Source of the DNA: Planctomycetota bacterium
GTDB taxonomy: Bacteria; Planctomycetota; JAJSAM01; JAJVHW01
Direction of reading: 5' to 3'
NCBI GenBank assembly: GCA_965248445.1
Contig: CBDFJG010000004.1
Location: 832,001 to 896,000 of the forward strand
Length of the DNA: 64,000 nt
A program made the position numbers and the translations under genes. Every line of letters starts with the position of its first letter. The stretch's first letter is position 1. The notes beneath the pieces were generated by a model that was not told the DNA's origin, ran no database searches, and saw only the letters and a program-made list of their open reading frames with translations. Positions 39,867 to 58,396 of the stretch are shown piece by piece.

Positions 39867-40550
39867 TCAACTCCCGATCGACCCGGACCACGGAGGACCC
39901 CCTGCCCGCGCTCCGGCGACATCCTGAGCGCGCGTCGCGCGCGCCGCACAGACGGCGACGCACGCGATCCCGGCCACCTCCAGCAGCCACCCGAACGACA
40001 GGTCCCCGAACGCGTCCGACACCACCGGAACGTGGTGAATCGCCGCAGCGCGAAGCAGCACGAACAGCGCTAGGATGCCGACGCCGACGAGTGCAATCCA
40101 AAGTCGACGTACGTCCCCGGAAGCCAGTCTCCATATGGCTTTTAGCCCGACGAGCCCACCGATCGTCAGCACCGCGACGAACGCGATCTGCACCCCCCGC
40201 CGCGCGTCGTACCACCCCTGCGCCCGCGCCACCCGACGCCCGAAGTCGGTCAGCAAATCGTGCAGGTCGAGTGGCTTGTTCGCACCGAGCAGCAACAGCC
40301 CCGCCGCCGCCACGACCCAGAACAACGCGACCCGAGACCGATCTCCCCACGCCCCCGTCACGACCGCCGCCCGCGCCGAGCGAGCAGCCCCCACACACAG
40401 CAGCGCGACCACGACATACGCGACCGCAATCGCCCACTCGAGGCCCTGGCCGGGGAACGCCGCCCACACTGGCATGTCCCGGCACCATCGCAGCCTCGGT
40501 ATTTCCGGATCAAGCGCAACGCTCCCCGCGCCATCAGTGAGAGCGCGCAT
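39867..40550 (-). CDS. multi-TM membrane protein divergent from the GT2-NRPS operon
   Basis: W..AVAY, FW...LLLLGANKPLDL..LLT..GR..A...GWY..RR.VQ; 5-6 hydrophobic segments. Confidence 0.7.
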   Translation of the reverse strand: MRALTDGAGSVALDPEIPRLRWCRDMPVWAAFPGQGLEWAIAVAYVVVALLCVGAARSARAAVVTGAWGDRSRVALFWVVAAAGLLLLGANKPLDLHDLLTDFGRRVARAQGWYDARRGVQIAFVAVLTIGGLVGLKAIWRLASGDVRRLWIALVGVGILALFVLLRAAAIHHVPVVSDAFGDLSFGWLLEVAGIACVAVCAARATRAQDVAGARAGGPPWSGSIGS

Positions 40551-40604
40551 CCCGTCGCTTCCACTGGGCCAGGACACGGGGCGCGCGCACAATGCAGACT
40601 GTCC

Positions 40605-41672
40605 ATGAACGCGACACCCGAGCCGGCACTGTCGATCCTGATTCCGACCCGCGATCGGGCGGAATCGCTGCGACTCACGCTCGAGGCCCTGGCCGCCGAC
40701 CGGACCGAGCACGCGTTCGAGGTCGTGGTGATCGACAACGGCAACCAGCCCACACTCGATCTCGACTCCCTCGTCGTGCCGACGCTCCCGTCACTCCGCC
40801 TGCTCCACGACCCCCGGCCCGGTAAGGCCCACCCAATGAACTGCGCGCTCGACGCGGGCGGCCTGGCCCCCCTCGTCGCGGTCCTCGACGACGACATGAC
40901 TCCCGCCACCGACTGGGTCGACGGCGTCCTCGCCGCCTCGGAGCGGCTGCCCGAGTTCGACATATTCTCCGGGCGCTCCCACGCCATCTGGCCGGGCGGG
41001 ACCACCCCGCCCGCGTGGGCGGACACGTTCGTCCTCGGTATGGCGTTTTCGGTGGCCGACCTCGACGCCGAACGCGACGTCGAGTTCGGAGTCGGTCCGG
41101 TCCCGGCCCCGAGCGGAAACCAGTTCTGGTTCCGCCGCACCGTGCTCCGAGCCGGGATGCGTTTCCCGGACGCGTGGCCGCCGGAGTTCCACTTCGTCAT
41201 GGCCCTGCGTGCTGCGGGACACAGGGGGACGTTCGTACCCGGAGTCGTCGCAGGTCACCGCGTGCAGCCCGAGCTGATCGGTCTCGGCGAGCTCCGGAAG
41301 AGGAGCGCCCGTCTCGGCCGCGAGATCGCGCGGCTGGAGTTCGTCCTTCCGGATCCCGCGGTACTCGGTGGCCCGCCGAGGATGAGCCGCTGGCGGCAGG
41401 CCGCTCGCGCGACCCTCGCGGTCGGCGCGTGGTCTATCCGGTGGGCGCGTGCTTCGCTGAGTCCGGCGGCGACGCGGCCCGGAACGCGGGCGCGGGCGAT
41501 CATCGGATTGGCGACGAACAGGGAGCGGCTGGCGCTGGCGTTCGCACCGGAGCGGGCGCGACTCCTTCGCGAGTGGATGTCGAGTACATCGCAGCCGATG
41601 TCCGGGGCAGCAGCACAACTCCGCAACGAGGAGTCGCACTACGGCAACGGCGCAAGCGAGTTCGCAAGATGA
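40605..41672 (+). CDS. glycosyltransferase family 2
   Basis: LSILIPTRDR, VVVIDNG, LDDD; ATGA overlap with the NRPS. Confidence 0.88.
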   Translation: MNATPEPALSILIPTRDRAESLRLTLEALAADRTEHAFEVVVIDNGNQPTLDLDSLVVPTLPSLRLLHDPRPGKAHPMNCALDAGGLAPLVAVLDDDMTPATDWVDGVLAASERLPEFDIFSGRSHAIWPGGTTPPAWADTFVLGMAFSVADLDAERDVEFGVGPVPAPSGNQFWFRRTVLRAGMRFPDAWPPEFHFVMALRAAGHRGTFVPGVVAGHRVQPELIGLGELRKRSARLGREIARLEFVLPDPAVLGGPPRMSRWRQAARATLAVGAWSIRWARASLSPAATRPGTRARAIIGLATNRERLALAFAPERARLLREWMSSTSQPMSGAAAQLRNEESHYGNGASEFAR

Positions 41673-44600
41673 GTCAGCAGCCTGAGCCCCGGCCCGTCCC
41701 CGCCGAGTGGTGCGAGCGTACCGTCGCCTACGACCGCAGCGTCCCGGTGCACGGCCACTTCGCCCGCGCTGCCACGCGGTACGCCGACAAGGTCGCGCTC
41801 CGCTGGTCGGGAGGCGACATGACGTATGCCGACCTCGACGCGCGCTCAGCCCGCCTGGCCTGCCTGCTCGTGGACGAAGGCGTCCGCCCGGGCGATCTCG
41901 TCCCGGTCGCGATGCACCGCTCGCCAGAGGTCATCATCGCCTTCCTGGGGATCTTGCGGGCCGGCGCGGCATTCGTGCCGCTCGACCCGACGTGGCCCGG
42001 CCTCAGACTCGCCGGCATGCTCGCGGACATCGCGCCTCGGCTCGCCGTCGTCGACGGGGACGTGCCCGGCTGGCCAGAGGACATCGCGACGCTGTCGCTC
42101 GACAGTGTGGGCGACACGCTGGAGGGATGGCCCGGATCCCCGCCCGACGTCGCATGCGACCCGGAGTCCCCTGCATACGTGATGTTCACCTCGGGCTCCA
42201 CCGGGCGCCCTAAGGGGGTCGTCGTCCCTCACCGCGCGATCGTCCGCCTGGTCATAGGCAACGACTTCGCAGACCTCGGATCCGATCAGACGTGGCTGCA
42301 GGGCGCGCCGCTCTCCTTCGACGCCTCGACACTCGAGATCTGGGCCCCGCTTCTGAACGGGGGCACGTGCACACTGCTGGACGCGGAGATCCCCACGATC
42401 GAGGAACTCCGCCGGGCCATCGCGGACCTCGGCGTCACGAGTGTGTTCCTCACAACGGCGCTGTTCAACCTCGTGGTCGACGAGGATCTGCCCGCGCTGG
42501 CTCCGCTGCGGCAGCTGATCACCGGCGGCGAGGTCTGCTCTGTCCCGCACTTGCGGCGCGCGTTCGACGCGCTGCGCGCGACCCGGCTCATCCACGCCTA
42601 CGGCCCCACCGAGAACACGACGTTCACGACCTGCCACACGATCCGACAACAGGACTTCGCGTCGGCTGGGTCGATCCCGATCGGCCGGCCCATCGCGAAC
42701 ACGCGCGTGTACGTGCTCGATGAACAGGACCAGCCGGTGGGCGTCGGCGAGCCGGGAGAACTCTGCGCCGCCGGCGATGGCGTGGCGATCGGCTACCTGG
42801 GGCGTCCAGAGGCGACCAACCGGGCCTTCGTCCCGGACCCCAGAGACGCTGCTACCGGCGCGCGGATGTACCGGACCGGCGACCTGGTCAGGTGGGACGA
42901 CGACGGTCGCGTTCAATTCGTCGGCCGCAAGGACCGTCAACTCAAGATCCGCGGCCATCGCATCGAGCCCGGCGAGATCGAGGCGCATCTCAATCGCTGC
43001 CCAGGCGTGCGCCGCTCGGCGGTGCGGGCGGAGGAGACCGACGCCGGCCGACAGCTCGTGGCGTTCGTCGTCGCAGACGCGCGCGGCCGGACCGCAACTG
43101 CGGCGCTCCGCAAGCAACTCGCAGCCCATCTGCCTGCCCAGATGCTCCCGTCGCGGTTCGAGTGGATCGACACGCTGCCGATCGGCGACACGGGCAAGCT
43201 CGATCGCGAGCGGCTGCCCGCGCCGAGCGGCGAGTCGGACCAGGGGGCACGTCCGGTGCCCGACGCGTGGAACGGCCGCACCGTTCCTTACGACCGGTCC
43301 ACTCCTGTTCACGGGCACGTCGAACGGATGGCCGCAGCGCATCCAGGTCGCATCGCGATTCGCACGGGCAGCGAGGAGATCACGTACGCCGAACTGGACG
43401 CGCGCTCGGCGCAGCTCGCGCGCCTACTGGCCGAGCACGGCGTCGGCCGCGGAGACTTCGTCCCAGTGGCGATGTGCCGCTCTCCCGACGTCATCGTGGC
43501 CCTGCTTGCCACGCTGCGGGCCGGAGCCGCCTTCGCGCCGCTGGGCCCCGCATATCCGGCAGCACGGCTCCGAACCATGTTGGACGATCTGGCGCCACGC
43601 CTCGCAATCGTCGACGACGACATCGTCCGAGCGGGCTGGCTCGACGACATGACAGTCCTCGAGCGGCGTGATTGGGCGGACGTACCGCGTTCGCCCGAGC
43701 AGCCGCCGCCTCGCGTCAAGGTCGATCCGGATGCCCCCGCGTACGTGATGTTCACGTCGGGAACCAGCGGCCGGCCGAAGGGCGTGATCGTGCCCCACCG
43801 GGGGATCGTCCGCCTCATCGTCGGAGCGGACTACGCGAAGTTCGGTCCGGATGAGACGTGGCTGCAGGCAGCCCCGCTGGCGTTCGACGTCTCCACGATC
43901 GAGATCTGGGGGCCGCTCATGACTGGAGGGACCTGCGCGCTACTCCCGCAGCAGGTGCCGGTGGTCCACGAACTCCGCGACGCCATCCGCGAGCTCGGCG
44001 TGACCAGTCTGAATCTCACGACGTCGCTGTTCAACCTGGTCGTCGACGCCGACGTGGACGCTCTGGCGCCCGTTCGACAACTCCTCGTTGGCGGTGAGGC
44101 GCTGTCACCGCAGCACGTGCGACGTGCTTTCGAGGCGCTTCCGAACACCGCGATCATCAATGTCTTCGGACACACCGAGAACACCACGTTCACGACCAGC
44201 CACACCGTCCGCCGCGAGGACGTGGTGTCCGGAGAGTCGATCCCCATCGGCCGCCCGATCGCGAACACGCGTGTCATCGTCGTCGACCACGACGGCCGCC
44301 CTGTGGGTATCGGGGTGCCAGGTGAGGTCTGCGCGACAGGTGACGGTGTCGCGCTCGGCTACCTGAAGTCCCCGGATCTGTCGAGCCGCGTCTTCGTCCC
44401 CGACCCCACCAGCCCGGCCGCCCGGATGTACCGGACCGGCGACCAGGCGCAGTGGGGGGACGACGGGCTCCTGCGCTTCGTCGGGCGCATGGATCGACAG
44501 CAGAAGATCCGCGGCCACCGGGTCGAGCCCCAATCGGTCGAGATAGCGCTGCTCGCCTGTTCCGGCGTGCGCCAGGCGGCGGTCGAAGTGCACGCGGTTG

Positions 44601-47482
44601 CTGGCGCGAAGCAGCTCATCGCTTTCGTGTCGGGACGCAGGCGAACCGACCTGCGGTGCGAACTGTCCACGCGTCTGCCTGCGTACATGATGCCGTCGCG
44701 TATCCATTGGCTCGACGCGCTGCCCCTCGGACCACGCGGCAAGGTCGACCGCGCGACGCTTCGTCGACGGCTGGAGCGGTCGACGAGCATGCAGACTCCG
44801 CTCTCTCCGGGGGACGGAACCGCGCTGTCGGTCGTCCTCAACATCTGGCGCGAACTACTCGGGCTCGAGGAACTGGGCCCGAACGACGACGTACTCGCCG
44901 CCGGTGCCGACTCGCTCACGACGGTTCGTGCCGCCGCACGCATCGACGAAGAACTCGGGGTGCGATTGTCGTTCACGGATCTGCTGGCGGCGCGCACGGC
45001 GCTGAACATGGCGCCGCTCATAGAGGCGCCAAGGGACGACACGGAGGACGCAGAAGCGCTCCCGAGCGGTCCGCCGCAGCTCGGCGTCGGGGAACTCCTC
45101 GTCCATCTGGTGAGCCTGAGCAGTCCGCCGGCTGCGTACAACGAACCGTTCGCGACGACACTGCGCGGCGAGCTGAACGAGCTCGCCCTGCACGCCGCGC
45201 TCGACGACCTCGTGGCCCGCCACGAGGCGCTGCGAACCCGCATCGCGCGCCGCGAGGACTCGTTCGTGCCAGTGGTGCAGCCCCGTGCGCCGTTCCCGCT
45301 CGCCACGGCGGATCTTCCGTGGGACGAGTCCGCCGTCAGCGCCCGACTCGTCGAAGAATCCGCGCGTCCGTTCGACCTCGCGAGCGAAATGCCGGCGCGG
45401 GGCCTCCTTCTGCGTCACGGCCCGCGGCACGCGAGTCTCCTGCTCGTGTTCCACCACGTGGTGTTCGACGACTGGGCGATGGCCATTCTGTTCCGTGAAC
45501 TCGGCGTGCTGTATGCGGCGCACCGTGAGGGGCGGCTTCCCGAGTTGCCTGCTCCGGGGGGCCAGCCATCGGACATCGCGCGTACCCTCGCTCTCCGCCT
45601 GGACAAGCGACGACGGGCGCGGGAGATCACGTTCTGGAAGTCCACGCTCAACGGCGTGGACGTGCGACTCGCCCTGCCACGTCCGACGGATGACGATCTC
45701 GCTGTCGAGGGTCGGCAGTCCCAGCGGGAGATCCCGGTACCGATCGACGATCGAACGGCCGAGGCCCTCGAGGCGCTGGCCGTCGAGTGCGGTGTGACAC
45801 CGAACGCGGTGGCGCTCGCCGGCGTCGGAGCCGCTCTTTCCCGCGAACTCGGGCGGAAGGACGTCGTCCTCACCACGCACTTGACCCTTCGAGACGTGCT
45901 CTCGGCGACCGACATTGTCGGCATCGCGCTCAACGCCGTCATGATCCACATGCATCTCGAGCCCGACCTGGACCACCGTGGCCTGATCGGGCAGGTCGCC
46001 GAGACGAGCGCTGCGGCGTTCCGCCACGGTCTGGTACCGATCGCGGACGTGCTGCCGGCACTGGACATCCCGCGTGAATCCGCTCGGCGACCGCTCCAGG
46101 CCCTGGTCGTGCACCGTCCGCACACGGACGTGGTCATCGAGCTTGATGAACTGCAGTCCTCGCCCTTGACGACCCGCACGCAGATTCCCAAGGCGGACCT
46201 CCTTGTCTGGCTGGATCGCGCCGACGTCGGCTACGACTCGCGGATCGAGTACGACGGCCGGAACGTCTCGGCGGCGTGGGCTGCCCGCCTCGCCGGGACG
46301 CTCGCCGCCGTGTACCGGGAGATGTGCGAGGACGCCTCTGCGCTCGCTGTCCCTGCCGGCGCGTTGGCGCAGCTCGCCGACGACCCGGTACCGGCGTCAT
46401 CATCGGAACCCGCCGCCACGCCCGTGGCCCCCGCGACGGCGACCGAGACCGTCGTTCTCGAGGTCTGGCGCGAACTCCTCAGCAGCCCTGACATCGGGGT
46501 CCTGGACGACTTCTTCTCCCGCGGCGGGCACTCACTGCTCGCAGTGCGCATGCTCGCGCGTGTCGAGAAAGCCACGGGAGTCAACCTGCGCGCGCGGGCC
46601 GTGTTCGAGATGCCCACGGTGCGCGGCCTGGCAACTCTGATCGACGAACGCGGCACGCTGCCCACAGGCGCGGCGTCGGGAGCGCTGCTCCTGCGCGACG
46701 GTGGTGCAACGGCGCCGCTCTTCTGTCTTCCGGGCGTCGGAGGCCACGCGTTCCAGTACCGAGAATTGGTGGAACGCATGCAGACGCAACGCCCGCTTTA
46801 CGCGCTGCAGCTCCACGATCTCGATGTATCCGCCCGCTGTCTGGAGTCCGTCGACGAGACGGCGGCGGCGTTCGTCGCGAGCATTCGCTCGGTGTGCCCC
46901 CATGGGCCGTACGCACTCGCCGGCTACTCGTACGGCGGCATGCTGGCGATCGAGATCGCACGGCGCCTGACGGACGCAGGCGCAGCGGTGCAGTTCGTCG
47001 GCCTGATCGACACGTACGCACCCGGCGTCGCGTTTCCCGCACCGCGACTGCGCAAGGTGGGCGCGCACCTGCGCAGCCTCGCCTCCATGGGCCTCGGCGA
47101 GGCCTCCGAGTACCTCTCGAGTCGCATCCGCCGACGGATCGCGGCGGCTGCGTTCTACCTCCGCGAGCGGAAGACCGGAACGCCGGAGATCTCGGAGAGT
47201 CTCGCGACGCGAATCGAGGAGACACGCGTCCTCTGCCTGCGAGCGATTCGGAACTACGAGGTCCGCCCCATTCCGACTCCGGTCGCCGTCTTCCGGGCCA
47301 CCCGCCTCACCGATTGGGTCGACGTCAACGATCCCACCGGCACCTGCGGCTGGGGTCCGCTGGCTCCCGCCGTGACCGTGGTCGACCTCGACTGCGAGCA
47401 CCTCGAGCTCTTCCGCGAGCCTCACTTGAGCGAGCTTGCGGCCCGGCTCGACGAGGCGCTCGCGAGCCTGGGCGACGCCTAG
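41669..47482 (+). CDS. non-ribosomal peptide synthetase, domain order A-A-T-C-T-TE (1937 aa)
   Basis: A1: YVMFTSGSTGRPKG, YGPTE, YRTGD, GKLDR. A2: YVMFTSGTSGRPKG, FGHTE, YRTGD, GKVDR. T1: GADSL. C: HHVVFDD. T2: GGHSL. TE: GYSYGG. Confidence 0.92.
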   Translation: MSQQPEPRPVPAEWCERTVAYDRSVPVHGHFARAATRYADKVALRWSGGDMTYADLDARSARLACLLVDEGVRPGDLVPVAMHRSPEVIIAFLGILRAGAAFVPLDPTWPGLRLAGMLADIAPRLAVVDGDVPGWPEDIATLSLDSVGDTLEGWPGSPPDVACDPESPAYVMFTSGSTGRPKGVVVPHRAIVRLVIGNDFADLGSDQTWLQGAPLSFDASTLEIWAPLLNGGTCTLLDAEIPTIEELRRAIADLGVTSVFLTTALFNLVVDEDLPALAPLRQLITGGEVCSVPHLRRAFDALRATRLIHAYGPTENTTFTTCHTIRQQDFASAGSIPIGRPIANTRVYVLDEQDQPVGVGEPGELCAAGDGVAIGYLGRPEATNRAFVPDPRDAATGARMYRTGDLVRWDDDGRVQFVGRKDRQLKIRGHRIEPGEIEAHLNRCPGVRRSAVRAEETDAGRQLVAFVVADARGRTATAALRKQLAAHLPAQMLPSRFEWIDTLPIGDTGKLDRERLPAPSGESDQGARPVPDAWNGRTVPYDRSTPVHGHVERMAAAHPGRIAIRTGSEEITYAELDARSAQLARLLAEHGVGRGDFVPVAMCRSPDVIVALLATLRAGAAFAPLGPAYPAARLRTMLDDLAPRLAIVDDDIVRAGWLDDMTVLERRDWADVPRSPEQPPPRVKVDPDAPAYVMFTSGTSGRPKGVIVPHRGIVRLIVGADYAKFGPDETWLQAAPLAFDVSTIEIWGPLMTGGTCALLPQQVPVVHELRDAIRELGVTSLNLTTSLFNLVVDADVDALAPVRQLLVGGEALSPQHVRRAFEALPNTAIINVFGHTENTTFTTSHTVRREDVVSGESIPIGRPIANTRVIVVDHDGRPVGIGVPGEVCATGDGVALGYLKSPDLSSRVFVPDPTSPAARMYRTGDQAQWGDDGLLRFVGRMDRQQKIRGHRVEPQSVEIALLACSGVRQAAVEVHAVAGAKQLIAFVSGRRRTDLRCELSTRLPAYMMPSRIHWLDALPLGPRGKVDRATLRRRLERSTSMQTPLSPGDGTALSVVLNIWRELLGLEELGPNDDVLAAGADSLTTVRAAARIDEELGVRLSFTDLLAARTALNMAPLIEAPRDDTEDAEALPSGPPQLGVGELLVHLVSLSSPPAAYNEPFATTLRGELNELALHAALDDLVARHEALRTRIARREDSFVPVVQPRAPFPLATADLPWDESAVSARLVEESARPFDLASEMPARGLLLRHGPRHASLLLVFHHVVFDDWAMAILFRELGVLYAAHREGRLPELPAPGGQPSDIARTLALRLDKRRRAREITFWKSTLNGVDVRLALPRPTDDDLAVEGRQSQREIPVPIDDRTAEALEALAVECGVTPNAVALAGVGAALSRELGRKDVVLTTHLTLRDVLSATDIVGIALNAVMIHMHLEPDLDHRGLIGQVAETSAAAFRHGLVPIADVLPALDIPRESARRPLQALVVHRPHTDVVIELDELQSSPLTTRTQIPKADLLVWLDRADVGYDSRIEYDGRNVSAAWAARLAGTLAAVYREMCEDASALAVPAGALAQLADDPVPASSSEPAATPVAPATATETVVLEVWRELLSSPDIGVLDDFFSRGGHSLLAVRMLARVEKATGVNLRARAVFEMPTVRGLATLIDERGTLPTGAASGALLLRDGGATAPLFCLPGVGGHAFQYRELVERMQTQRPLYALQLHDLDVSARCLESVDETAAAFVASIRSVCPHGPYALAGYSYGGMLAIEIARRLTDAGAAVQFVGLIDTYAPGVAFPAPRLRKVGAHLRSLASMGLGEASEYLSSRIRRRIAAAAFYLRERKTGTPEISESLATRIEETRVLCLRAIRNYEVRPIPTPVAVFRATRLTDWVDVNDPTGTCGWGPLAPAVTVVDLDCEHLELFREPHLSELAARLDEALASLGDA

Positions 47483-47504
47483 AACCTGCGACCGGCCGAC
47501 AGAC

Positions 47505-48549
47505 CATGCATATCCGGTTGACGACCGTGACCCCAAGGGGTAGTGTCTCGGACGCATGCCGAAGCCGGGCTACCCTCGCAACATCGTGGAGTTCACGGAG
47601 CAGTTCGCGACGGAAGAGCAGTGCCTCGAGTACCTCGTGCAGTGTCGTTGGCCCGACGGGTTCCGCTGCCGCCGGTGCGGCGGCAAGAAGTACTGGCCCC
47701 GTCCAGATCGAAGAGCGATGCGGTGCGTGGGCTGCGACCTGATCACGTCGGTCACCGCGGGCACAGTGCTGCATCGCAGCCGGCTGCCGCTGAAGTCCTG
47801 GATGTGGGCCGCGTACTTGATGACGACGGACAAGCGGGGCGTCTCTGCGCTCGCACTCCAGCGACAGCTCGGTCTGACCCGCTACGAGACCGCGTACCAG
47901 ATGCTCCAGAAACTGCGATCTGCGATGGTCGCGCCGGAGCGCGCGCAGTTGTTCGGCGTCGTCGAGGTCGACGAGGCGCTGATCGGAGCGCCGTTTCGAG
48001 GCCGAGAGGAGCGCACCGCGGCAGACAAGGCCGTCGTGGTCGGCGCGGTCGAGGTGCGTCCGACGAAGAGAGGTACACAGCCCGGACGCATCCGGCTGCG
48101 CCACGTGCCGGCCTCATCGAAGCCGCACCTGCTGGCGTTCGTCAAGGACAGCATCGAGCGTGGGGCGCTCGTCGTGACCGACGGCCACGAGACCTACGAC
48201 GCAGTCGAGAAACTCGGCTACGAGCACGGGATCGAGTCCACGATGATGGGCGCGGCGCAGGCGGACGTCCTGAGGCACCTGCACCTGGTCTTCTCCAACC
48301 TCAAGAGACCTGGCTCGTAGGCACGCACCACGGCCGGGTCTCGAAGAAGCACCTGCAGCGGTATCTCGACGAGTTCACGTTCCGGTTCAACAGGAGACGC
48401 ACGCCGCAGGCAGCGTTCCAGACGGTCCTCGGCATCGCGGCGAAGACGCCGCCGCGCACGTACGAACAGGTCTACGCCGACGAGCCTGCAAGCCCGCTGC
48501 CCTTCTAGCACAAGATGTAGTGGGCGCGGTCATTAACCGGATATGCATG
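47505..48549 (+). mobile_element. IS1595-family insertion sequence
   Basis: TIRs CATGCATATCCGGTTGACGACC / GGTCATTAACCGGATATGCATG; 8-bp TSD CGACAGAC at 47497-47504 and 48550-48557. Confidence 0.92.
47556..48508 (+). pseudogene. IS1595 transposase, frameshifted near 48305
   Basis: Zn ribbon CRRC..CVGC, VEVDE, VTDG, then HLQRYLDEFTFRFNRR in another frame; CTCAAGAGACCTGG has an extra AG versus L-K-T-W. Confidence 0.85.
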
Positions 48550-48662
48550 CGACAGACCGCCCCCCCCCCCCCTTTCTTCCGAGTCTTCGGATCGAACGAA
48601 GTCCGGTCTCAGGCTGGGGTTCACACGATTCGAGAAAGTCAACTGTCAGCAAAAGAAAACGG

Positions 48663-48691: not shown

Positions 48692-48725
48692 CGTCGCACC
48701 GTCCGGAAGCTTCAGTTTGGGGAGT

Positions 48726-49469
48726 ATGAAGATGAAGACGAGTGTGGGTATTGGTGCGCTGGCCTTCATTGCCGCGCTTGGGCTGTTGGCGCCGATTGCG
48801 AGCGCTGACCTCATTGACGACGTAGAGGTCGGCGACTACCTGCGCCTCTACGACGGGCCCGGTGGCGGAAACGGTGGCGAGTTCGAGGCCAAGGTGATGG
48901 CGAACTCCACCACCTACACCAATGTCGTCGACAGTTGGTTCACGTTCTGCATCGAGCGGAACGAGCACTTCAACTACGGTGAACAACAGAGAGTCGAGAC
49001 GATCTCGGACACGGCGATCGGCGGCGGCGTCAACGCCTCCGGCGGAGGTGACGTACTCGAGTACACGACCGCGTATCTCTACACGCAGTTCCGCAACGGC
49101 ACGCTGGAAGGCCGGGACGGGACCGGCAACTTCTTCGACACCAATGAAGAAGTGGACAACGCGACGGCGCTCCAGGAGGCCATCTGGTGGCTCGAGGGCG
49201 AGTATGGCGCGACCGCTGCGGTCACGGATCGATCCACCGAGGCCCAGCACTACATCAGCCTCGCACAGAACGCGGGCTGGACGAGCCACGGGAACGTCCG
49301 CGTCATGAACCTCGAGAGACAAGTGACCGTGAGCGGTTCGACTCAGTGGATCGACGCACAGAGTCAACTCATGCTGGTCCCCGAACCGGCAAGCGTAGCT
49401 CTTCTGGGGATCGGACTCGCAGCCGCGGCCTGCCTGCGGCGGCGGCGCGTCGCAACTCTCTCGCGATAA
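48726..49469 (+). CDS. PEP-CTERM sorting-domain surface protein (thioester-domain-like motifs)
   Basis: Signal peptide; FCIE, LQEAIWW, AQSQLML; VPEPASVALLGIGLAAAACLRRRR. Confidence 0.92.
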   Translation: MKMKTSVGIGALAFIAALGLLAPIASADLIDDVEVGDYLRLYDGPGGGNGGEFEAKVMANSTTYTNVVDSWFTFCIERNEHFNYGEQQRVETISDTAIGGGVNASGGGDVLEYTTAYLYTQFRNGTLEGRDGTGNFFDTNEEVDNATALQEAIWWLEGEYGATAAVTDRSTEAQHYISLAQNAGWTSHGNVRVMNLERQVTVSGSTQWIDAQSQLMLVPEPASVALLGIGLAAAACLRRRRVATLSR

Positions 49470-49668
49470 CAAGACCAACGGAACCCAAGCGCGCCGGCGA
49501 CGGCCTCATACGGGTGTAGTCCAGCAAAGGACTCATCAGAGGCTTGTCGTCGGCGCTTTTGTGCGTTCTTCGTGTCGTCGGCGGCGCGCTGCCGTTGGTC
49601 GGAGACTTCGACCGCAACGGGGGCGCGTCCTTCCCTCGAGGCTCGCGAAAACGCGGGGGACGGTAGCC

Positions 49669-49677
49669 TGTTAGAAT
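49669..49677 (+). promoter_or_regulatory. possible extended -10 promoter for the exosortase operon
   Basis: TGTTAGAAT about 30 nt before the exosortase start. Confidence 0.35.
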
Positions 49678-49707
49678 CTGGGCGCCGATGATGGGGGATG
49701 ACGACGC

Positions 49708-50580
49708 GTGACCGCTGCGAGCGCGACCAGCAAGGGGTTCTGGGGTGGTCCCACGCACCGCGTGATTCTCCTCGTCGTCGTCGCGCTTCTCGTAGTGGCG
49801 TTCGGCCCGACTCTGGTGGAAGTCGTCACGAAGTGGAAGGACCAGCCCGAGTACAGCCATGGATTCCTGATGCCACTCGTCGCGGCGTGGATGGTCTGGG
49901 AACGGCGAGCGGAGTTCGGGCGCCTCGCCCCGCGTGCGTCCTTCGTGGGCGGCCTCCTGCTGCTCCCGTGCGTCGGTCTCCTGCTTGTCGGCGAGGTGGC
50001 GCTGTTCGAAGTCGTCAAGCCCTACGCCTTCGTGGGCGCCCTCGCGGCAATCCTCTGGGCCTTCTACGGGCGCACGTCGGTCCGCGTCGCGATCGCACCC
50101 CTGGTCGCGCTGTTCCTGATGTGCCCGCTGCCACGCTCGATCGTGGACGGAATGACGGTCCCCCTGAGGGGCAGCGCCGCGCTGCTCGCCACGGGCATGC
50201 TCGACCTCACCGGCATCCGCGCCACGCTGGACGGCAACCTGATCAGCCTGCCCGGTCTCGAGCAGTTGTTCGTGGCCGACGCGTGCAGCGGCATCAACTC
50301 GCTGATCTCGCTCGGCAGCCTGGCGATCATCGTCTGCCTGGTCTGGCGACGGCATTGGGCCGTCGCCTCCGTGGTCCTCCTGTCCTGCATCCCGATCGCC
50401 ATCCTGACGAACGCTCTGCGTATCTGGCTGACCGGGTTCCTGTCCGTCCAGATGAGTCCCGAGACCGCGAAGGGCGTCTTCCACAACTTCCAGGGGATGG
50501 CGCTGTTCGGTGTGGGGCTGGTGTTCCTGTGGGGCTGGACCACTCTCATCGGCCGCGCGTTCCCGGCGAGGCTCGCATGA
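49708..50580 (+). CDS. exosortase
   Basis: EYSHGFL, VADACSG (Cys), NALRI (Arg), FHNFQG (His). Confidence 0.93.
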   Translation: MTAASATSKGFWGGPTHRVILLVVVALLVVAFGPTLVEVVTKWKDQPEYSHGFLMPLVAAWMVWERRAEFGRLAPRASFVGGLLLLPCVGLLLVGEVALFEVVKPYAFVGALAAILWAFYGRTSVRVAIAPLVALFLMCPLPRSIVDGMTVPLRGSAALLATGMLDLTGIRATLDGNLISLPGLEQLFVADACSGINSLISLGSLAIIVCLVWRRHWAVASVVLLSCIPIAILTNALRIWLTGFLSVQMSPETAKGVFHNFQGMALFGVGLVFLWGWTTLIGRAFPARLA

Positions 50581-51260
50581 ACAACACCGTGCGCGCGCTG
50601 GTCATCGTCTCGCTGGTCGTCGCGGCGATCGGCGTCCACATGTTCCGGTCGATGGTCGCCCCGGGCGATCCCGACCCCATCCGCATCGCCGCGGTGCAGC
50701 GTCGCCTCGACGCGCTACCCATGACGCTCGCGGATGGAAAGTACACCGGCGTGCGGCAGAACCACGAGCAGGAGCTCGTCGTCAAGTCCGGCGCCGACAG
50801 CCACGCCGCCGCGGCGTTTGCCACCGAGAATCACGCGCTCCAGTTCAACATCTACATTGGCGGCTCCACCAACCCCGACCTCGCGTTTCACGCGCCGAGC
50901 GTCTGCCTGCCAGCCGCCGGCTGGGAGCTCGCCGACGATCGGTTGGTGGAGTTCGAGGCGTTCGCTGCCGACTCTCCCGACAGTCAGATGCGCCGCCTGC
51001 ACGTCAGGTTCGGCAACGACGAGAGGCTCTGCTACTTCTGGTTCCAGTCGGGAACGGACATCGCGCCCTCGATCTGGAAGGCTCGCTTCTTCAACTTCCG
51101 CGAGCGCCTCGGTGGCGAGCGGAATTCCCCGACGTACATCGTTGTCGTCTACGCGCCGATACGGGAGAGCGTGCGTCACACCGATCAGGCGGCGCGGCTC
51201 TTCATGAAGGCCCTGGGTCCCCAGATTCTGAGCGCCGTCGCAGAAGATCACGACGGATGA
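50577..51260 (+). CDS. EpsI-family exosortase-associated protein
   Basis: ATGA coupling; FHAPSVCLPAAGW, CYFWFQ. Confidence 0.88.
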   Translation: MNNTVRALVIVSLVVAAIGVHMFRSMVAPGDPDPIRIAAVQRRLDALPMTLADGKYTGVRQNHEQELVVKSGADSHAAAAFATENHALQFNIYIGGSTNPDLAFHAPSVCLPAAGWELADDRLVEFEAFAADSPDSQMRRLHVRFGNDERLCYFWFQSGTDIAPSIWKARFFNFRERLGGERNSPTYIVVVYAPIRESVRHTDQAARLFMKALGPQILSAVAEDHDG

Positions 51261-54159
51261 CGAGTTCTGAGCCCCCTCCAGGCGCCGGGTCCTCGCGGCG
51301 CATCTGGGTCGTCGTACTCGCGTTCGTGCTCGCAGCCCTCGGCGTTGCGACCTGGCTGGCTGTCACGCGCGGGATGCGCCGCTCCGACCTCTACGCAGTC
51401 GCGCTCACCGAGTTCGCAGCCGGCGATCGCGCGACTGCCGAGAGTCTGCTACGCCAGCTCCTCGACGCCAACTCGGAAAACCCGAACGCTCGCAAGAAGC
51501 TGATCGAGATGCTCCTCGAGGACGAGCGCTTCGAAGAAGCCCGCGAGTTGGCAGAAGTCTGGACCGATCTCAACGCCCGACCGCACCTCGGCTGGGCCTA
51601 CCGGATCGAGGTGGAGCTGCGACAGGCACATCTGGCTGAGGCCGAGAAGCTCGCACGCGACGTCATCGACCGCATGCCCGAGCTCTCGCTGACGACCATC
51701 GTCCGGGTACGCGACGCGCTCGGTACGTACTCCGACCGCTGGGAAGCGCAGAAGGCCGCGGTCCACGTGGCAACGATCACCGATACGCCCGTGCGCAAGT
51801 CGATCAACTTGCTCTTCGCGGCGGAGACCATTCTGGACATCGCCCCCTCGATGACGGCGGGCGCCTCCGGTCCTGCCAGACAGATCGCTCGGCGCTACCT
51901 CGACGAGGCGCTCGACACGCTCGACGAAGCGACCCCCACCGGCAGCGAGAGCGACGAGGCACGTCGAGTACGCGCGCGCATCCTGCTCCTGTCAGAAGAT
52001 GAGTGGGAGCGCGAGAGCGGCGAGAAGACCCTCAACGCCATTCTGGACGCCAACCCGAGAGACTTCGAGTCGCACGCCGCGATGGCGACGTTCTACGCCG
52101 CGCAGCAGGACTGGAAGAGCGCTGTCGGCAAGGTCCAAGACCTGTCAGGCGCGAGCCGCCCGTACCTGATCTGGCTTCGCGCCGTGCGGCGCCTCGCCTC
52201 TCGCGCCCCGTTCGACATCGTTCTCCCGCTACTCGAAGCCTCGCAGCGTCCTGACGAGCCGCTCTTCGTGTTGCTGCGAGCCGGCGTCCTGCTCCGGGAG
52301 TTCGAGCGCGGAGGCAAGGAGGCGTACCGGGAGCAGGCAGCCGAGATGCTGTTCGGGCTTGCCGATCCGAATCGCGATGACGTCGACCGACGCATGCTCG
52401 TCGCCGCCTGCCGTCTCCTCGCAGCGAGCGGCGAACAGAAGCGAGCCCTGGGCCTCCTTGAACGGATTCCCGACGACGAACTCGACGCCGCCGACCGCGC
52501 GCTGCTCGGCAGCGGTCTCGGCGGCGGGACCGATCGCGCGGAGAGACTGCTCGACGGACTGTCCGGACGCGTCCGGACCCTGCGCGAGAGCATCCGCGTG
52601 CTGAGCGTGCTTCAGCGCAGCGACGACGACACCGTGTCCGCCTACCTGAATTCTCCCATCACCGCCGGAGGCGACGACGGCGCGCGTCTCCACTTGATGC
52701 GCGCAGTGTCGGCAGCAACGTTCGGTCGCCGGACACCTCCCGGCACGCGGCAGACGATCCTGCTGGACGCGGCCAAGCGCGACCTTCGAGCCATCTCCGA
52801 GACAGCGCCCAAGGAGACGCTTGCCGACGCCTTCCGGCTGTCGCTCGGCGTGCAGGAGTACGAGCTCGCCGGGATGCACCTCGGACGCGCGCTCGCGAAA
52901 GAGGGTCGGCCGTACGCTCTCTCACTCTTCGCCCTCGCACTGGGCCGCAACACCAAGGAAGCCGACGTCCGCGCGGCCATCGCGACAGGCATCCGGTCGG
53001 CCGCCGTGGACTCGAACGCAGAGCGCTACCAGCTCGCCGTGGCAGACGCCATCGAGACGCCGCCCGCAGCGAGCCCGGTTCGCAGACCGCCGCGCTCATC
53101 CTGGGCACCCAGCTGGCGAACGCAGACAAGGACTTCGACGACTCACGGCGCCTGGCCGAGACGCTCGTCGCGGCCCGTCCCGACTCGGAGTATGCGCGCG
53201 CGTTGCTCGGCGACCACTACCTCCGAGACAAGGACTTCTCGGCCCTCCTCGAACTCCACGACGGGAACACCGGCGACGATGTGGACGCCACCCGGCAGCG
53301 CGTTCTCGCTCTCTTCGAACTCGGGCAGGAGACCGAAGCGATCGCCCTCGCACGCAAGGCCACGAGAGCGCATGGCGATCGCAGCGACGAACCCCACCTC
53401 CTCCTGGCCCACCTCCTGAAGCGGACGCGACAGCCCATGCGCGCCCTGGGGGCCCTCGCCACGGCACCCAGCACCACTCGCGTGCTGCTGTTCCGCGCGC
53501 AGTTGTTGACCGATAGCGGAGAGCTGTGGGCCGCAGAGACGCTCTACGTCAACCTGCTTGCTCGCGCGTCCGAAGCCGACAACCGGACCGCGTGGTTGGG
53601 GATCAGCAACGTTCTCTCGCGGCAAGAGCGACACCCAGACCTGGTCGAGGTCCTGACGCGGGTACTTGAACCGCGTGACTCACAGTTGCCCGAAGCACTT
53701 CTCAGCACTCTGCACACGCTGCGTGGTAGCGCACGCGAGCGCCTTCCTGATTTCGGCCTCGCGCTCGTCGACTACGAAGCGGCCATCGAATTGAACCCGA
53801 ACGAGATTGTGGCCCTCAACAACGCTGCGTGGTTGATCCACGAGATCGCGCTCGAGCGGATCGACGAGGCCCGGCGGTTCATCGACACAGCCCTCGAGCT
53901 TGCGCCCGAGAACCGGAGCGTGCTCGACACCGCCGCGGTCGTCTATCTGGCGCTGGGCCGTCGCGAGCAAGCGCTCGAGTACGCAGAACGCGCCCTCGCC
54001 AAGGAACGCAAGCCCGAGTATCTGATCCATCGCGCCAAGGCGCTCCGCGAACTCGGACGCGACTCGGAAGCGAGAAAGAGCCTCGTGGAGGTGTTGGAGT
54101 CCTCGCCAGGCACCAACGCCGCCGCCCAGGCTTCGCGCCTTCTCTCGGACTTCCAGTGA
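51257..54159 (+). pseudogene. membrane-anchored TPR protein (PrsT-like), frameshifted near 53050-53090
   Basis: N-terminal TM and TPR helices; continues in another frame as AALILGTQLA...ALNNAAWL...LDTAAVVY, typical of exosortase-locus TPR proteins. Confidence 0.75.
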
Positions 54160-54300: not shown

Positions 54301-55800
54301 GTAACCGTTCACCCCTTCGTCGCGAGCCAGGATCCAGATCGTTCGGCCATCGGTCGATCAAGAGGTTGTGGGCGAGCGGCAGGACGAGGATCTGCGGGCG
54401 ATGGTCGAGGGCCTTCTGGCCTGGATCGAGGAGCTGGAGCGTCGCGAAGCGAAGCATCTGCGCCGCATCGACGAGCTCGAGTCGCGTCTGAAGCGTGACT
54501 CCCGCAACAGCTCGAGGCCTCCGTCGTCGGACCCGGCGTGGTCCAAGCGCCGTCGCGGCCGAAGGCCGCGTAGCGGTCGCCAGCAGGGCGGACAGCCGGG
54601 CCATGAGGGCACGGCGCGCGAGCTGGTGGATCCGTCCAACGTCGATGAGACCAAGGAGCACCGTCCCGACCTCTGCGACGCGTGCGGACACGACGATCTC
54701 GAGCAGGGCATCGGCGATCCGTACCGGCACCAGGTGACGGTGCTCCCGCGCGTGCTCGTCACGGTGCGGGAGCACCGGCTGCACAAGGCGCGGTGCCGGC
54801 GCTGTCGTGCGGTCACGACGGCGGTCCTGCCCGATGGCGTGCCGACCGGGGCCTTCGGTCCGCGGCTGACCACACTTGCCGGCGCGCTGCGCGGCGTGTA
54901 CCGCGTGAGCGTGCGGGAGACGCAGCGGCTGCTCGGTGAGATCTTCGGTGTGAAGATGTCGCTGGGCAAGATCAGCGACTGTGAGCGTCGGCTCAGTGAC
55001 GCTCTGCACTCGTCGTACCTCGAAGCCCTCGGGGCAGTCCGCACGTCGCTGCGAGCCAACGTGGACGAGACGTCGTGGAAGGAACGGGGCCGGGTGTGCT
55101 GGCTGTGGGCGGCGGAGAGCGAGCACGCCACAGCCTTCGGGATCGATCGCCGCCGCAGTGCCAAGGCGAAAGGGCGGCTGATCGGGCGGCGTTTCGGTGG
55201 CACGGTGATCAGCGACCGGATGGGTGCCTACGAGTCACACCCACTTGCCCGCCGCCAGCTCTGCTGGGCGCACATCGAGCGCGCCTTCCGTGCGCTGGCC
55301 GAAGGCCCGCGAGGACATCGCCGCTTCGGCAACAAGGGCGTCATGATCGCGCAGTCGGTCATGCGCAGCTACCGGCTCTTCGGTGAGCACGGCGACCGTG
55401 ACCGGCTGCAAGGCGAAGCCGCTGTGCTGCGCGGACGGCTCGAGCGACTGATCGCGAACGACGACTCGGCTCTGGCCAACCATCTGCGCCCCCGCGTGGT
55501 CGCCCTCTTCACCTATGCGCGGACCCAGGACGTGAGTCCGACGAACAACGCCGCCGAGCGCGCGGTCCGCAAAGCGGTGCTCTGGCGCAAGGGCTCCTTC
55601 GGAAGCCAGTCCGCTCGCGGACTCCGTTTCGCCGAGCGCGTGTTGACCGCCGCGGCCACGCTGCGACGCCGTGGCAACCAAGTCTTCGACTTCCTCGCCG
55701 ACTCGGTCGCCGCGCACCTCACCGGCGCCGACCCGCCCGTCATGGTCCCGCTGCCCGTCGCACGCTGAGGCTCACACGCTGTCAAGGGGTGAACGGTTAC
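54301..55800 (+). mobile_element. IS66-family (single-ORF, ISBst12-like) element, 1500 bp
   Basis: TIRs GTAACCGTTCACCCCTT / AAGGGGTGAACGGTTAC; no matching TSD. Confidence 0.92.
54368..55768 (+). CDS. IS66 transposase
   Basis: NSSRPPSSD, GGQPGH, VDETSW, SDRMGAY, CWAH, TNNAAERAVR. Confidence 0.93.
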   Translation: MGERQDEDLRAMVEGLLAWIEELERREAKHLRRIDELESRLKRDSRNSSRPPSSDPAWSKRRRGRRPRSGRQQGGQPGHEGTARELVDPSNVDETKEHRPDLCDACGHDDLEQGIGDPYRHQVTVLPRVLVTVREHRLHKARCRRCRAVTTAVLPDGVPTGAFGPRLTTLAGALRGVYRVSVRETQRLLGEIFGVKMSLGKISDCERRLSDALHSSYLEALGAVRTSLRANVDETSWKERGRVCWLWAAESEHATAFGIDRRRSAKAKGRLIGRRFGGTVISDRMGAYESHPLARRQLCWAHIERAFRALAEGPRGHRRFGNKGVMIAQSVMRSYRLFGEHGDRDRLQGEAAVLRGRLERLIANDDSALANHLRPRVVALFTYARTQDVSPTNNAAERAVRKAVLWRKGSFGSQSARGLRFAERVLTAAATLRRRGNQVFDFLADSVAAHLTGADPPVMVPLPVAR

Positions 55801-56483
55801 CACAGTCGCTGATCTTGCCCAGCGACATCTTCACACCGAAGATCTCACCGAGCAGCCGCTGCGTCTCCCGCACGCTCACGCGGTACACGCCGCGCAGCGC
55901 GCCGGCAAGTGTGGTCAGCCGCGGACCGAAGGCCCCGGTCGGCACGCCATCGGGCAGGACCGCCGTCGTGACCGCACGACAGCGCCGGCACCGCGCCTTG
56001 TGCAGCCGGTGCTCCCGCACCGTGACGAGCACGCGCGGGAGCACCGTCACCTGGTGCCGGTACGGATCGCCGATGCCCTGCTCGAGATCGTCGTGTCCGC
56101 ACGCGTCGCAGAGGTCGGGACGGTGGTCCTTGGTCTCATCGACGTTGGACGGATCCACCAGCTCGCGCGCCGTGCCCTCATGGCCCGGCTGTCCGCCCTG
56201 CTGGCGACCGCTACGCGGCCTTCGGCCGCGACGGCGCTTGGGCCACGCCGGGTCCGACGACGGAGGCCTCGAGCTGTTGCGGGAGTCACGCTTCAGACGC
56301 GACTCGAGCTCGTCGATGCGGCGCAGATGCTTCGCTTCGCGACGCTCCAGCTCCTCGATCCAGGCCAGAAGGCCCTCGACCATCGCCCGCAGATCCTCGT
56401 CCTGCCGCTCGCCCACAACATCTTGATCGACCGATGGCCGAACGATCTGGATCCTGGCTCGCGACGAAGGGGTGAACGGTTAC
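55801..56483 (-). mobile_element. inverted 5' fragment (683 bp) of the same IS66
   Basis: Matches 54301-54983 in reverse, with at least 3 substitutions; abuts the right TIR of the full copy. Confidence 0.9.
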
Positions 56484-56492
56484 CCTCATCCG

Positions 56493-56727
56493 ATGGCTCG
56501 CTCACCATCGCGATATCTCGCGTATTCGTTGGCGGCCGCGCTGGTCGCGGCTCTGTTCGTGGGGGACCCCGCCACGGCGGGCGATCAAGAGATCGCCAAC
56601 ATCCAGGCCGTCTGCGAGTCGCCGATCGGCTTCTCGCGTCGCGCGGCACTCTTGGACGACTTGCGCAAGAAGGACACATCCTCCTCGCGCAATGCGCTTG
56701 AGGACATGGCCGCGAGCGACCGGGACG
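56493..56727 (+). pseudogene. 5' fragment of a secreted protein gene truncated by an IS3-family element
   Basis: MARSPSRYLAYSLAAALVAALFVGDPATA signal peptide, then a helical segment that runs into the IS end. Confidence 0.55.
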
Positions 56728-56760
56728 TGTCAACGACTTTGAGACACCGCGTCTTCGAGT

Positions 56761-57789
56761 TTAGTGAGCAGCCTCCTGTGTCGCAGTCTCCAGCGCCGCG
56801 AGTTCCCGGGCCGGCGGGTTGATCCACGTCTCGGTCGGCAGAGCCGGCGGCGTCGGCGCACGGCGCACGAAGCGCTCGGGATGCGCCGCGTACGCGGCAT
56901 CGAGCACGACCGAGCGCGCGGCGACGGCCGCTTCGGCGCGGCCGTAGTGCACGGTCTCGGGCGTCAGCAGCCCGAGACTCGAGTGACGATGCTCGCGGTT
57001 GTACCAGTGGAAAAAGGCGCGGCAGTGCGCCCGCGCGTCCTCGATGCAGCCGAAGCGCGCTGGGAAGTCCGGCCGGTACTTCAGCGTGCGGAATTGGCTC
57101 TCGGAAAACGGATTGTCATTCGACGTGTACGGCCGGCTGTGCGACTTCGTCACGCCGAGATCGGCGAGCAGAAAGGCCACCGGCTTGCTGATCATCGGCG
57201 GCCCCCGATCGGAGTGGATCGTGAGCTGCTCCGCCGCGATCCCCTGCTTCTCGCAGGACTGCTCGATGAGTGCCGTCGCCAGCGCACCGCTCTCGCAGTC
57301 CGCCAGCATCCAGCCCACGACGTTGCGGGAGTAGATGTCGAGCACGACGTAGAGATAGAAGTAGCTCCACTTCACCGGGCCGCGGAGCTTGGTGATGTCC
57401 CAGCTCCAGACCTGGTTCGGGGAGGTCGCGAGGAGCTCGGGCTTCTTGTACGCGGGATGACGCAGCTGGTTGCGGCGCTCACGCACAGCACCAGCCGCAC
57501 CGAGGATGCGGTACATCGTGCGCACCGAGCACAGGTAGCGTCCCTCGTCGAGCAGGATCGCCCACGCCGCAAGCGGTGACAGATCGCAGAAGCGCTCCTC
57601 GCTCAGCACCGCGAGTACGGTAAGACGCTCGTCGATCGTGAGGGCGCGCGGCGAGCGCCGGCGCGGCTGCTGGGGCCGGGGGCACGTGCGTGCCGTTCGG
57701 CGCCGATAGAGCGTGGCGCGCGTGACTCCGAGCGCGCGGCACGCGGGGGCGACGCCCACGCGTCCCCCCAGCTCCTCCGCCGCAATCAC
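56761..57789 (-). CDS. IS3-family transposase OrfB (integrase core)
   Basis: WSWDITKL, IHSDRG, DNPFSESQFRTLK. Confidence 0.92.
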   Translation of the reverse strand: MIAAEELGGRVGVAPACRALGVTRATLYRRRTARTCPRPQQPRRRSPRALTIDERLTVLAVLSEERFCDLSPLAAWAILLDEGRYLCSVRTMYRILGAAGAVRERRNQLRHPAYKKPELLATSPNQVWSWDITKLRGPVKWSYFYLYVVLDIYSRNVVGWMLADCESGALATALIEQSCEKQGIAAEQLTIHSDRGPPMISKPVAFLLADLGVTKSHSRPYTSNDNPFSESQFRTLKYRPDFPARFGCIEDARAHCRAFFHWYNREHRHSSLGLLTPETVHYGRAEAAVAARSVVLDAAYAAHPERFVRRAPTPPALPTETWINPPARELAALETATQEAAH

Positions 57790-58289
57790 GTGTCGCTCCC
57801 GCTCGTCTCGGGCATCTCGATGCCCAGCAGCCGTGAGACTTTTCGCTGCACGTCGATGATCACCTCGGCCGTCTCGAGCCGCTTCTCGAGACGGGCGACT
57901 TCGCGCTCGAGCTGCTCGTTGCGCTTCTTGAGCGCACGGTCCGGATCGGGCTTGGGACCACGCCGCTTGGGCGAGAGCGCCTCGAGCTGGCCCTGGTCCC
58001 GCGCGCGCCGCCACGTCAACAAGTGCGAGGAGTACAGCCCCTCACGGCGCAAGAGAGCGCCGATCTCGCCGGGCTTCGTGCACGCGTCCGCCGCCTCGAT
58101 GATCCGTAGCTTGTACGCGGCGCCAAAGCGCCGCCGCGAGGCGCGCGGCACGACCTCGGGGTCGCGCACCCCAACGTCCCCCGGGCCGCGCGCCCCGGGG
58201 GAGCCCCCTCCGCCTCGATCGCGCTCGCTATGCTCGCCCTCCCTCGGCTCCGGGATCTCCCCCGGCGCTGTGTTGTGGTTGTTCGTCAT
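57786..58289 (-). CDS. IS3-family transposase OrfA
   Basis: RRRFGAAYKLRI, GALLRREGLYSSHL..WR; GTGA-coupled to OrfB. Confidence 0.88.
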   Translation of the reverse strand: MTNNHNTAPGEIPEPREGEHSERDRGGGGSPGARGPGDVGVRDPEVVPRASRRRFGAAYKLRIIEAADACTKPGEIGALLRREGLYSSHLLTWRRARDQGQLEALSPKRRGPKPDPDRALKKRNEQLEREVARLEKRLETAEVIIDVQRKVSRLLGIEMPETSGSDT

Positions 58290-58396
58290 CGCTGGTTCCT
58301 CCACCGCCCTGCACAGTAATCATCCGTGGGGTCGTCGGTGTCTCAGCCACGTTGGCACAGAGGGCGATCTCGTGGGGTGGAGGGGCAGGGAGCTAC

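Follow-up and report, generated by a model that had tools for sequence, protein, structure and literature searches.

A planctomycete NRPS with tandem adenylation domains at its front and a second carrier without one of its own

An NRPS gene in a Planctomycetota genome raises the question of how two carrier (T) domains are loaded when both adenylation (A) domains of the protein stand back to back at its front and none stands directly before the second carrier. The gene lies behind a glycosyltransferase gene in the window, the whole stretch of 64,000 nucleotides that was analyzed (assembly GCA_965248445.1, contig CBDFJG010000004.1, positions 832,001 to 896,000).

Domain order and integrity of the gene

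The NRPS gene (41669..47482, + strand) is one open reading frame, running from the ATG at 41669 to the stop at 47482 and encoding 1937 aa in the order A1-A2-T1-C-T2-TE. Its start overlaps, as ATGA, the stop codon of a GT2-family glycosyltransferase gene (40605..41672, + strand; PF00535). A longer frame from a GTG at 41015 (2155 aa) would run over the GT2 gene in a different frame, and the ortholog described below starts at the equivalent of the ATG; on these grounds it was rejected. Pfam recognizes two AMP-binding, two PP-binding, one Condensation and one Thioesterase domain, and HMMs built here place Acore at residues 28-420, Asub at 433-517, a second Acore at 548-940 and a second Asub at 953-1032, followed by T at 1054-1122, C at 1136-1566, T at 1594-1662 and TE at 1681-1935.

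All of these features are on the + strand. The distal domain A1 (41690..43222) is followed by a 23-residue junction without a carrier domain (43199..43267), by A2 (43247..44776), which adjoins T1 (44828..45034; PF00550), and then by C (45074..46366), a short linker at the place of the family's second A domain (46367..46447), T2 (46448..46654) and the thioesterase (46709..47473; PF00975). The motifs that the sequence-only reading had named for T, C, T and TE—GADSL, HHVVFDD, GGHSL and GYSYGG—were all found where it had put them, at residues 1079, 1262, 1619 and 1752. The carrier serines (Ser1082 and Ser1622), the HHxxxD residues of C (His1262/His1263/Asp1267) and the TE triad (Ser1754/Asp1781/His1911) are intact and all common to the related protein of genome G001. 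The last position of the C motif is Asp instead of Gly, and varies within the family. The canonical linear arrangement, with an A domain directly before each carrier, is not found here, C and T2 being 27 residues apart.

The same reading had described two complete A domains with no carrier between them, and Pfam and the HMMs confirm this order: 23 residues lie between the catalytic Lys510 of A1 and Trp534 at the start of A2, too few to hold a carrier domain, and a hidden T is ruled out. It had also described near-identical linkers; the N-terminal segments are as similar as quoted, but the whole domains are 57% identical as protein. As DNA the copies are 65.6% identical, with a longest exact run of 22 nt; they are an old duplication and not a repeat created by assembly. 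Contigs built from reads pass through the junction with no differing letter in 4/4 runs, and those of three runs cover 40000-47532 in one piece; all four runs come from one sample of one study, possibly the window's own source, and thus check the assembly and not the distribution of the gene. Short joints in the read comparison had sides of ~20 nt or lay at non-homologous places, and were taken as matches of other organisms. The low A1-A2 DNA identity and the contigs across the junction together rule out a misassembly or collapsed repeat, and the A-A-T-C-T-TE architecture at 41669-47482 is real.

The C domain has Txo1 as its best PDB sequence match (E 4e-42) and matches AmbE only at 1.5e-5; its best fold matches are ordinary PCP-C didomains. 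By sequence, it is of the ordinary condensation type and not AmbE-like. A model of T1-C-T2-TE (pLDDT 83, pTM 0.58) supports the folds, not the docking; T1 is modelled as a four-helix carrier, and residues ~1559-1582 of the C-T2 linker (~24 residues) have low model confidence and are likely disordered. A single-sequence model of A1-A2-T1 gave no usable fold (pLDDT 37.7).

These comparisons bear on one alternative to dipeptide formation, in which C would move a single amino acid from T1 to T2, like the final AmbE step, TE would pass it to a sugar acceptor, and the two A domains would provide alternative residues. The T-C-T-TE end of the protein does match AmbE, one A domain suffices in G001, and the locus is polysaccharide-associated. 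We nonetheless find this transfer improbable, given the distance of C from AmbE's C and its closeness to ordinary condensation domains, its grouping with the C domains of canonical dipeptide relatives, and a locus in which no tailoring enzymes were found.

Relatives, genomic surroundings and history

The thioesterase serves as the family marker: it is 44–59% identical to those of six relatives, and further members occur among 1.84 billion representatives. Close TE matches are present in 5/401 genomes of the phylum (the window's included) and in three more genomes reached by order-level searches. The phylum, Planctomycetota, is supported by a close relative whose source gives it that label and by a genome of that phylum with the same gene. 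We define here a Planctomycetota GT-linked dipeptide NRPS family from genomes G260, G445, G552, G370, G567 and G193 together with database proteins. Apart from the window's protein and that of G001, its complete members are canonical A-T-C-A-T-TE; the canonical counterpart that had been invoked for comparison is thus found, behind the same GT2 gene. The window NRPS falls in the TE clade and the C clade of the family and has GT2 directly upstream, and it lacks the Thr-type A domain of module 1 and an A domain within module 2.

A T2-TE tree was built from 21 family rows, chosen from the top matches with TE-only fragments and C-T-TE-T-TE proteins (e.g. P0261) left out, and in it the window nests among canonical members. 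An A domain, or its Asub end, precedes the last T in 19/19 ingroup rows besides the window and G001, and the A-A arrangement occurs in one of the 21, the window's. The C domain of P0261 falls outside the family C clade; P0261, P0266 and P0279, all among the TE matches, have the order C-T-TE-T-TE without an A domain. The 1782-aa database protein P0185 joins a polysaccharide flippase-like domain and a GT1 domain to A-T-TE, which is another NRPS-polysaccharide link.

TE, junction and order-level homolog searches found A-A-T-C-T-TE in no other genome. In the junction search among shorter proteins, one of the 120 matches listed had A after A; it was rejected as the deletion junction of a truncated A domain in an unrelated protein. 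A domain-pattern scan gave five loci in genome contigs, G001's alone being relevant, 12 loci in metagenome contigs, none of them close, and none in viral contigs. Plasmids yielded distant NRPSs only, the best of them an unrelated C-A-T-C-T-TE. The C-domain homolog search was uninformative, as multi-module NRPSs dominated the matches listed and the G001 ortholog was missing from them.

Among 60 related genomes, a close C domain is present in one, G001, which belongs to the same family as the window's genome. The gene there (L011:9220-13476) is collinear and encodes a single-A protein of 1418 aa, A(Val code)-T-C-T-TE, with the GADSL motif in T1, the HHxxxDDW motif in C and the same upstream GT2 (46%); its locus adjoins exosortase and polysaccharide genes. 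The window's C is sister to G001's (support 100) inside the family's C clade (96), retains HHxxxD and shares with it an identical 16-residue stretch. The two C domains are 41–42% identical, compared with 48–53% for three canonical pairs at similar A distance, and the T2 domains are 57% identical. A T tree places T1 weakly with T2-type carriers (83) and was not used as evidence. Judged by its sequence, the G001 protein is a non-linear NRPS in minimal form, and no other relative would serve as well as a control for the window's enzyme.

A close GT2 gene is found in five genomes (the window's, G001, G260, G445 and G552) and lies directly before the NRPS gene in 5/5; the window's GT2 is 44–51% identical to the others. 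GT2 matches in G039 and G310 are distant, with no NRPS in the stretches examined. The G260 and G445 loci have an extra PPTase gene and lie among polysaccharide genes, and the G370 locus has a PPTase gene and a GT87 gene in place of GT2. Dipeptide NRPS loci with a Thr-type first A domain are L044, L070 and L071 (G260, G445 and G552), L046 and L069 (G370 and G567) and L045 (G193); they have a coupled GT2 (or GT87), often a PPTase, and are set in exopolysaccharide or exosortase loci. Going by this gene context, the family may decorate polysaccharide with peptide.

Downstream, an IS1595-family element (47505..48550, + strand), which has an 8-bp target duplication and matches the genome at 8 places, separates the NRPS gene from a block of PEP-CTERM protein, exosortase, EpsI-like and TPR genes (48717..54159, + strand); the same block adjoins the NRPS in G001 and G193. 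The transposase frame of this IS1595 copy is broken near 48304-48320, where copies differ by 2 bp. The TPR gene (51257-54159) is 34–36% identical to the one beside G193's NRPS, and its frame changes near 53050-53100, through a real lesion or an assembly error. A dense IS cluster at 54368-62555 contains three IS66-like genes, two integrase-core or IS3-like pieces and a DDE transposase, and just past the window end (L057:3242-11355) genes that by eye are phage-tail-like—tape measure, tail tube and host specificity—were noted.

The genome measures 5.4 Mb at 92% completeness; no C domain besides that of the NRPS was found in it, and an Sfp-like PPTase gene lies on another contig. Neither an MbtH-like gene nor a sigma-70-like promoter upstream was found, and the HMMs built here detected no stand-alone A-T didomain or shuttling thioesterase in the genome at that completeness. 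A second, unrelated protein of 1319 aa (G000:C4:1597202-1601161) combines an A domain with a long C-terminal part and matches the carrier model weakly, and a separate polysaccharide locus (G000:C3:508000-530000) has a second exosortase and no NRPS.

Specificity codes were taken from an alignment, at what we take to be the GrsA motif positions. The module-2 code in most canonical members is DALWLGGTFK, at 9/10 positions identical to each of the Val codes DALWIGGTFK and DAFWLGGTFK; this exact string was not found in the published literature searched. Their module-1 code is DFWNIGMVHK, given for Thr in PMC12283262 and, as a prediction, in PMC3547906. In the A-domain tree A1 and A2 are sisters (92/94), bearing out the internal duplication suggested earlier, and G001's A is next (99/99); all three group with the module-2 domains in a Val-type clade well separated from the Thr-type A domains of module 1 (100/100). 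The A and C trees therefore indicate that the Thr-type A was lost, that module 2 lost its A, and that a Val-type A came to stand at the front. The earlier view that the same parts are merely permuted fails on two counts: the Thr-type A is gone, both A domains being copies of one Val-type A, and the single-A relative A-T-C-T-TE has an A-less module 2 without any tandem.

The G001 form makes it likely that module 2 lost its A domain first and that the front A was duplicated later. An ancestral A(Thr)-T-C-A(Val)-T-TE would have acquired a front Val-type A and lost the module-2 A, giving A-T-C-T-TE as in G001, and tandem duplication of the front A would have come last. The duplication more probably postdates the split from G001, but the AU test does not reject the alternative grouping, in which A1 pairs with the A domain of G001 (p-AU 0.098), and G001 could have lost a copy. 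A mosaic origin of G001's A from A1 and A2 was discarded, there being no consistent switch along the domain. The proposal that the second A had moved to the front survives in part: the front A domains do lie in the Val-type clade of module-2 domains, but A-T-TE and C-A-T-TE proteins fall in that clade too and the tree does not separate its subclades, so that this family's own module 2 is a possible source among others.

Two A domains and two carriers

The state of the A domains was assessed over 62 columns with a conservation of 90% or more among 510 other A domains. A1 has changes at 0/62, G001's A at two and A2 at 5/62; five or more are seen in 14% of the 510. The core motifs of A1 are all intact: it has no adjoining carrier and is removable in frame, yet it is the more intact copy. 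With motifs defined in part after PMC10510592, A2 retains the A4 Asp, A5 Glu, A7 Asp, A8 hinge and A10 Lys (Lys1025), and has rare substitutions—Y833F (3/513 A domains), E956S (1/513) and P835H, also rare—some of them in A5 and A8. The Pfam AMP-binding_C model passes for A1 only, the Asub of A2 being short, and the branch of A2 in the A-domain tree measures 0.52 vs 0.35 for A1.

Lineage-specific changes fall at 0/55 conserved vs 45/209 other columns in A1 (p 9e-6) and at 5/60 vs 65/229 in A2 (p 5e-4). Both copies show purifying selection in this sequence test, which averages across history and is compatible with a recent loss of function, and both are likely active. The sequence-only reading was to be given up if one A domain proved inactive and absent from all homologs: the tandem was indeed found in no homolog, but neither copy looks inactive by sequence.

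In both characterised tandem-A enzymes, PyrG and AulA, the first copy is dead or dispensable, and a protein that relies solely on A2, with A1 carried along as a dispensable passenger, would also fit the lack of a carrier next to A1. The catalytic motifs are lost in PyrG-A1 and AulA-A1, however, and the window's A1 is fully intact and under purifying selection, which makes a passenger role very improbable. The converse is that both carriers depend on A1, presumably like those of G001 on their single A, so that Val-Val or a similar dipeptide results and A2 is decaying to a spacer. The unchanged columns of A1 are what one would expect, as are the five changes of A2, the rare ones in A5 and A8, its short Asub and its unrecognizable code. 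Even so, A2 keeps every catalytic residue checked and is under purifying selection, its deviation is matched by 14% of other A domains, and A1 would have to reach T1 across a domain of 500 residues; we consider loading by A1 alone unlikely.

The codes of the two copies have diverged. A1 reads DALFIGATFK, matching at 9/10 positions DALFIGGTFK, a predicted Val code in PMC3547906, and is predicted to be Val-like; A2 reads DVINLGVTFK, three positions off the nearest code in the comparison set, and allows no reliable prediction. Variable pocket positions differ from those of G001's A at 3/8 in A1 and 4/8 in A2; among 11 more distant Val-clade domains, eight differ from it at none, two at one and one at three. 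The shift of both pockets fits two copies taking different substrates. A2 has a new Asn at code position 278, as in the Thr code, which as a substrate clue is a hint only.

It is also conceivable that both A domains are active and undedicated, either carrier being loaded by each or both feeding T1, so that a mixture of dipeptides results. An ancestral single A must have served both carriers if C condenses, and both pockets are changed while both copies are conserved. Against this, a tether of ~20 residues favours A2 for T1 on geometry; we judge undedicated loading rather unlikely.

Loading of the distal T2 by one A domain, which the sequence-only reading had raised, is from the sequence the likeliest mechanism. 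In the reading that we prefer, and put forward tentatively, T1 is served by A2 and T2, out of order, by A1, and the dipeptide formed by C goes into a product that is glycosylated or located at the cell surface. An Sfp-type PPTase encoded elsewhere would prime T1 and T2; the tethered T1 would be charged by A2, whose code no longer allows its residue to be predicted, and the residue put on T2 by A1, of the same chain or of a second one, would be Val or something like it. C would then form an X-Val bond, TE would release or transfer the product, and the coupled GT2 might glycosylate the dipeptide or tie it to surface polysaccharide, a link that we infer from gene context. An upstream A domain loading the carrier of an A-less module has been proposed for thalassospiramide (PMC10510592, section 5.4.2).

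A more specific version of this pairing of A2 with T1 and A1 with T2 would have A2 re-specified for T1 after loss of the Thr-type A, with Asn at 278 as in Thr domains, and the carrier-less A1 as a dedicated long-range loader of T2, restoring a Thr-Val-like dipeptide for polysaccharide decoration in an inverted layout. We think it distinctly unlikely; if true, no earlier tandem-A NRPS would have had two copies that are both active and each specific to one carrier.

Comparison with known systems

Tandem A domains are known in PyrG (pyridomycin) and AulA (auriculamide), where, according to PMC10510592 (section 5.4.1), PMC5238615 and bioRxiv 10.1101/2021.10.14.464479, the first copy is degenerate or dispensable, the substrate of A2 is an alpha-keto acid and a KR comes next; PMC5238615 calls the feature very rare. 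The window NRPS resembles them in having two consecutive A domains before one carrier, N-terminal as in AulA. It differs in that A1 is the more intact copy, without the loss of A3, A7 or A10 motifs, both codes start with Asp and neither is a keto-acid code (cf. Table 1 of PMC5238615), a KR is missing, and further downstream comes a second carrier with no A of its own.

The assembly lines for thalassospiramide and WS9326A include A-less modules (PMC10510592, section 5.4.2), and these share with the window a C-T module whose carrier needs out-of-order loading. Both are long lines in which the loader is a normal module's A or an A-T didomain acting in trans with shuttling thioesterases; in the window the same polypeptide instead includes a spare A without a carrier, and the search for a trans loader found none. 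In AMB biosynthesis, AmbE has the order Q-A-MT-T1-C-T2-TE, and its product moves from T1 to T2 by transthioesterification (PMC10880069). The T1-C-T2-TE end, with no A domain before T2, is common to both proteins; AmbE's C is a dehydrating domain and the window's C is not close to it, and the window has no Q, MT, partner NRPS or oxygenases.

The window NRPS combines two known departures from collinearity, each feature having a precedent. The literature searched, largely the main texts of open-access papers, yielded no A-A-T-C-T-TE protein, no two active tandem A domains and no GT2-linked family, and two conserved A copies predicted to serve two carriers appear to be undescribed there. What is notable is that the carrier-less A1 is the best-conserved copy. 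NRPS prediction and engineering presume that an A domain serves the adjoining carrier. The weight of the case is limited by A-A-T-C-T-TE being a singleton whose function is predicted from its sequence.

A further comparison is with the Planctomycetota GT-linked family itself, which has a related TE, C and Val-type A, GT2 upstream and an exopolysaccharide or exosortase context; the window differs from it in having neither the Thr-type A nor the module-2 A, and in the doubling of the Val-type A at the front. The family suggests that Planctomycetota may decorate their exopolysaccharide with peptide, possibly in a way not yet described. Its canonical, single-A and window forms, all behind the same glycosyltransferase, make up a compact three-step series, suited to tests of the reach of an A domain to a distant carrier and of specificity change after A-domain duplication.
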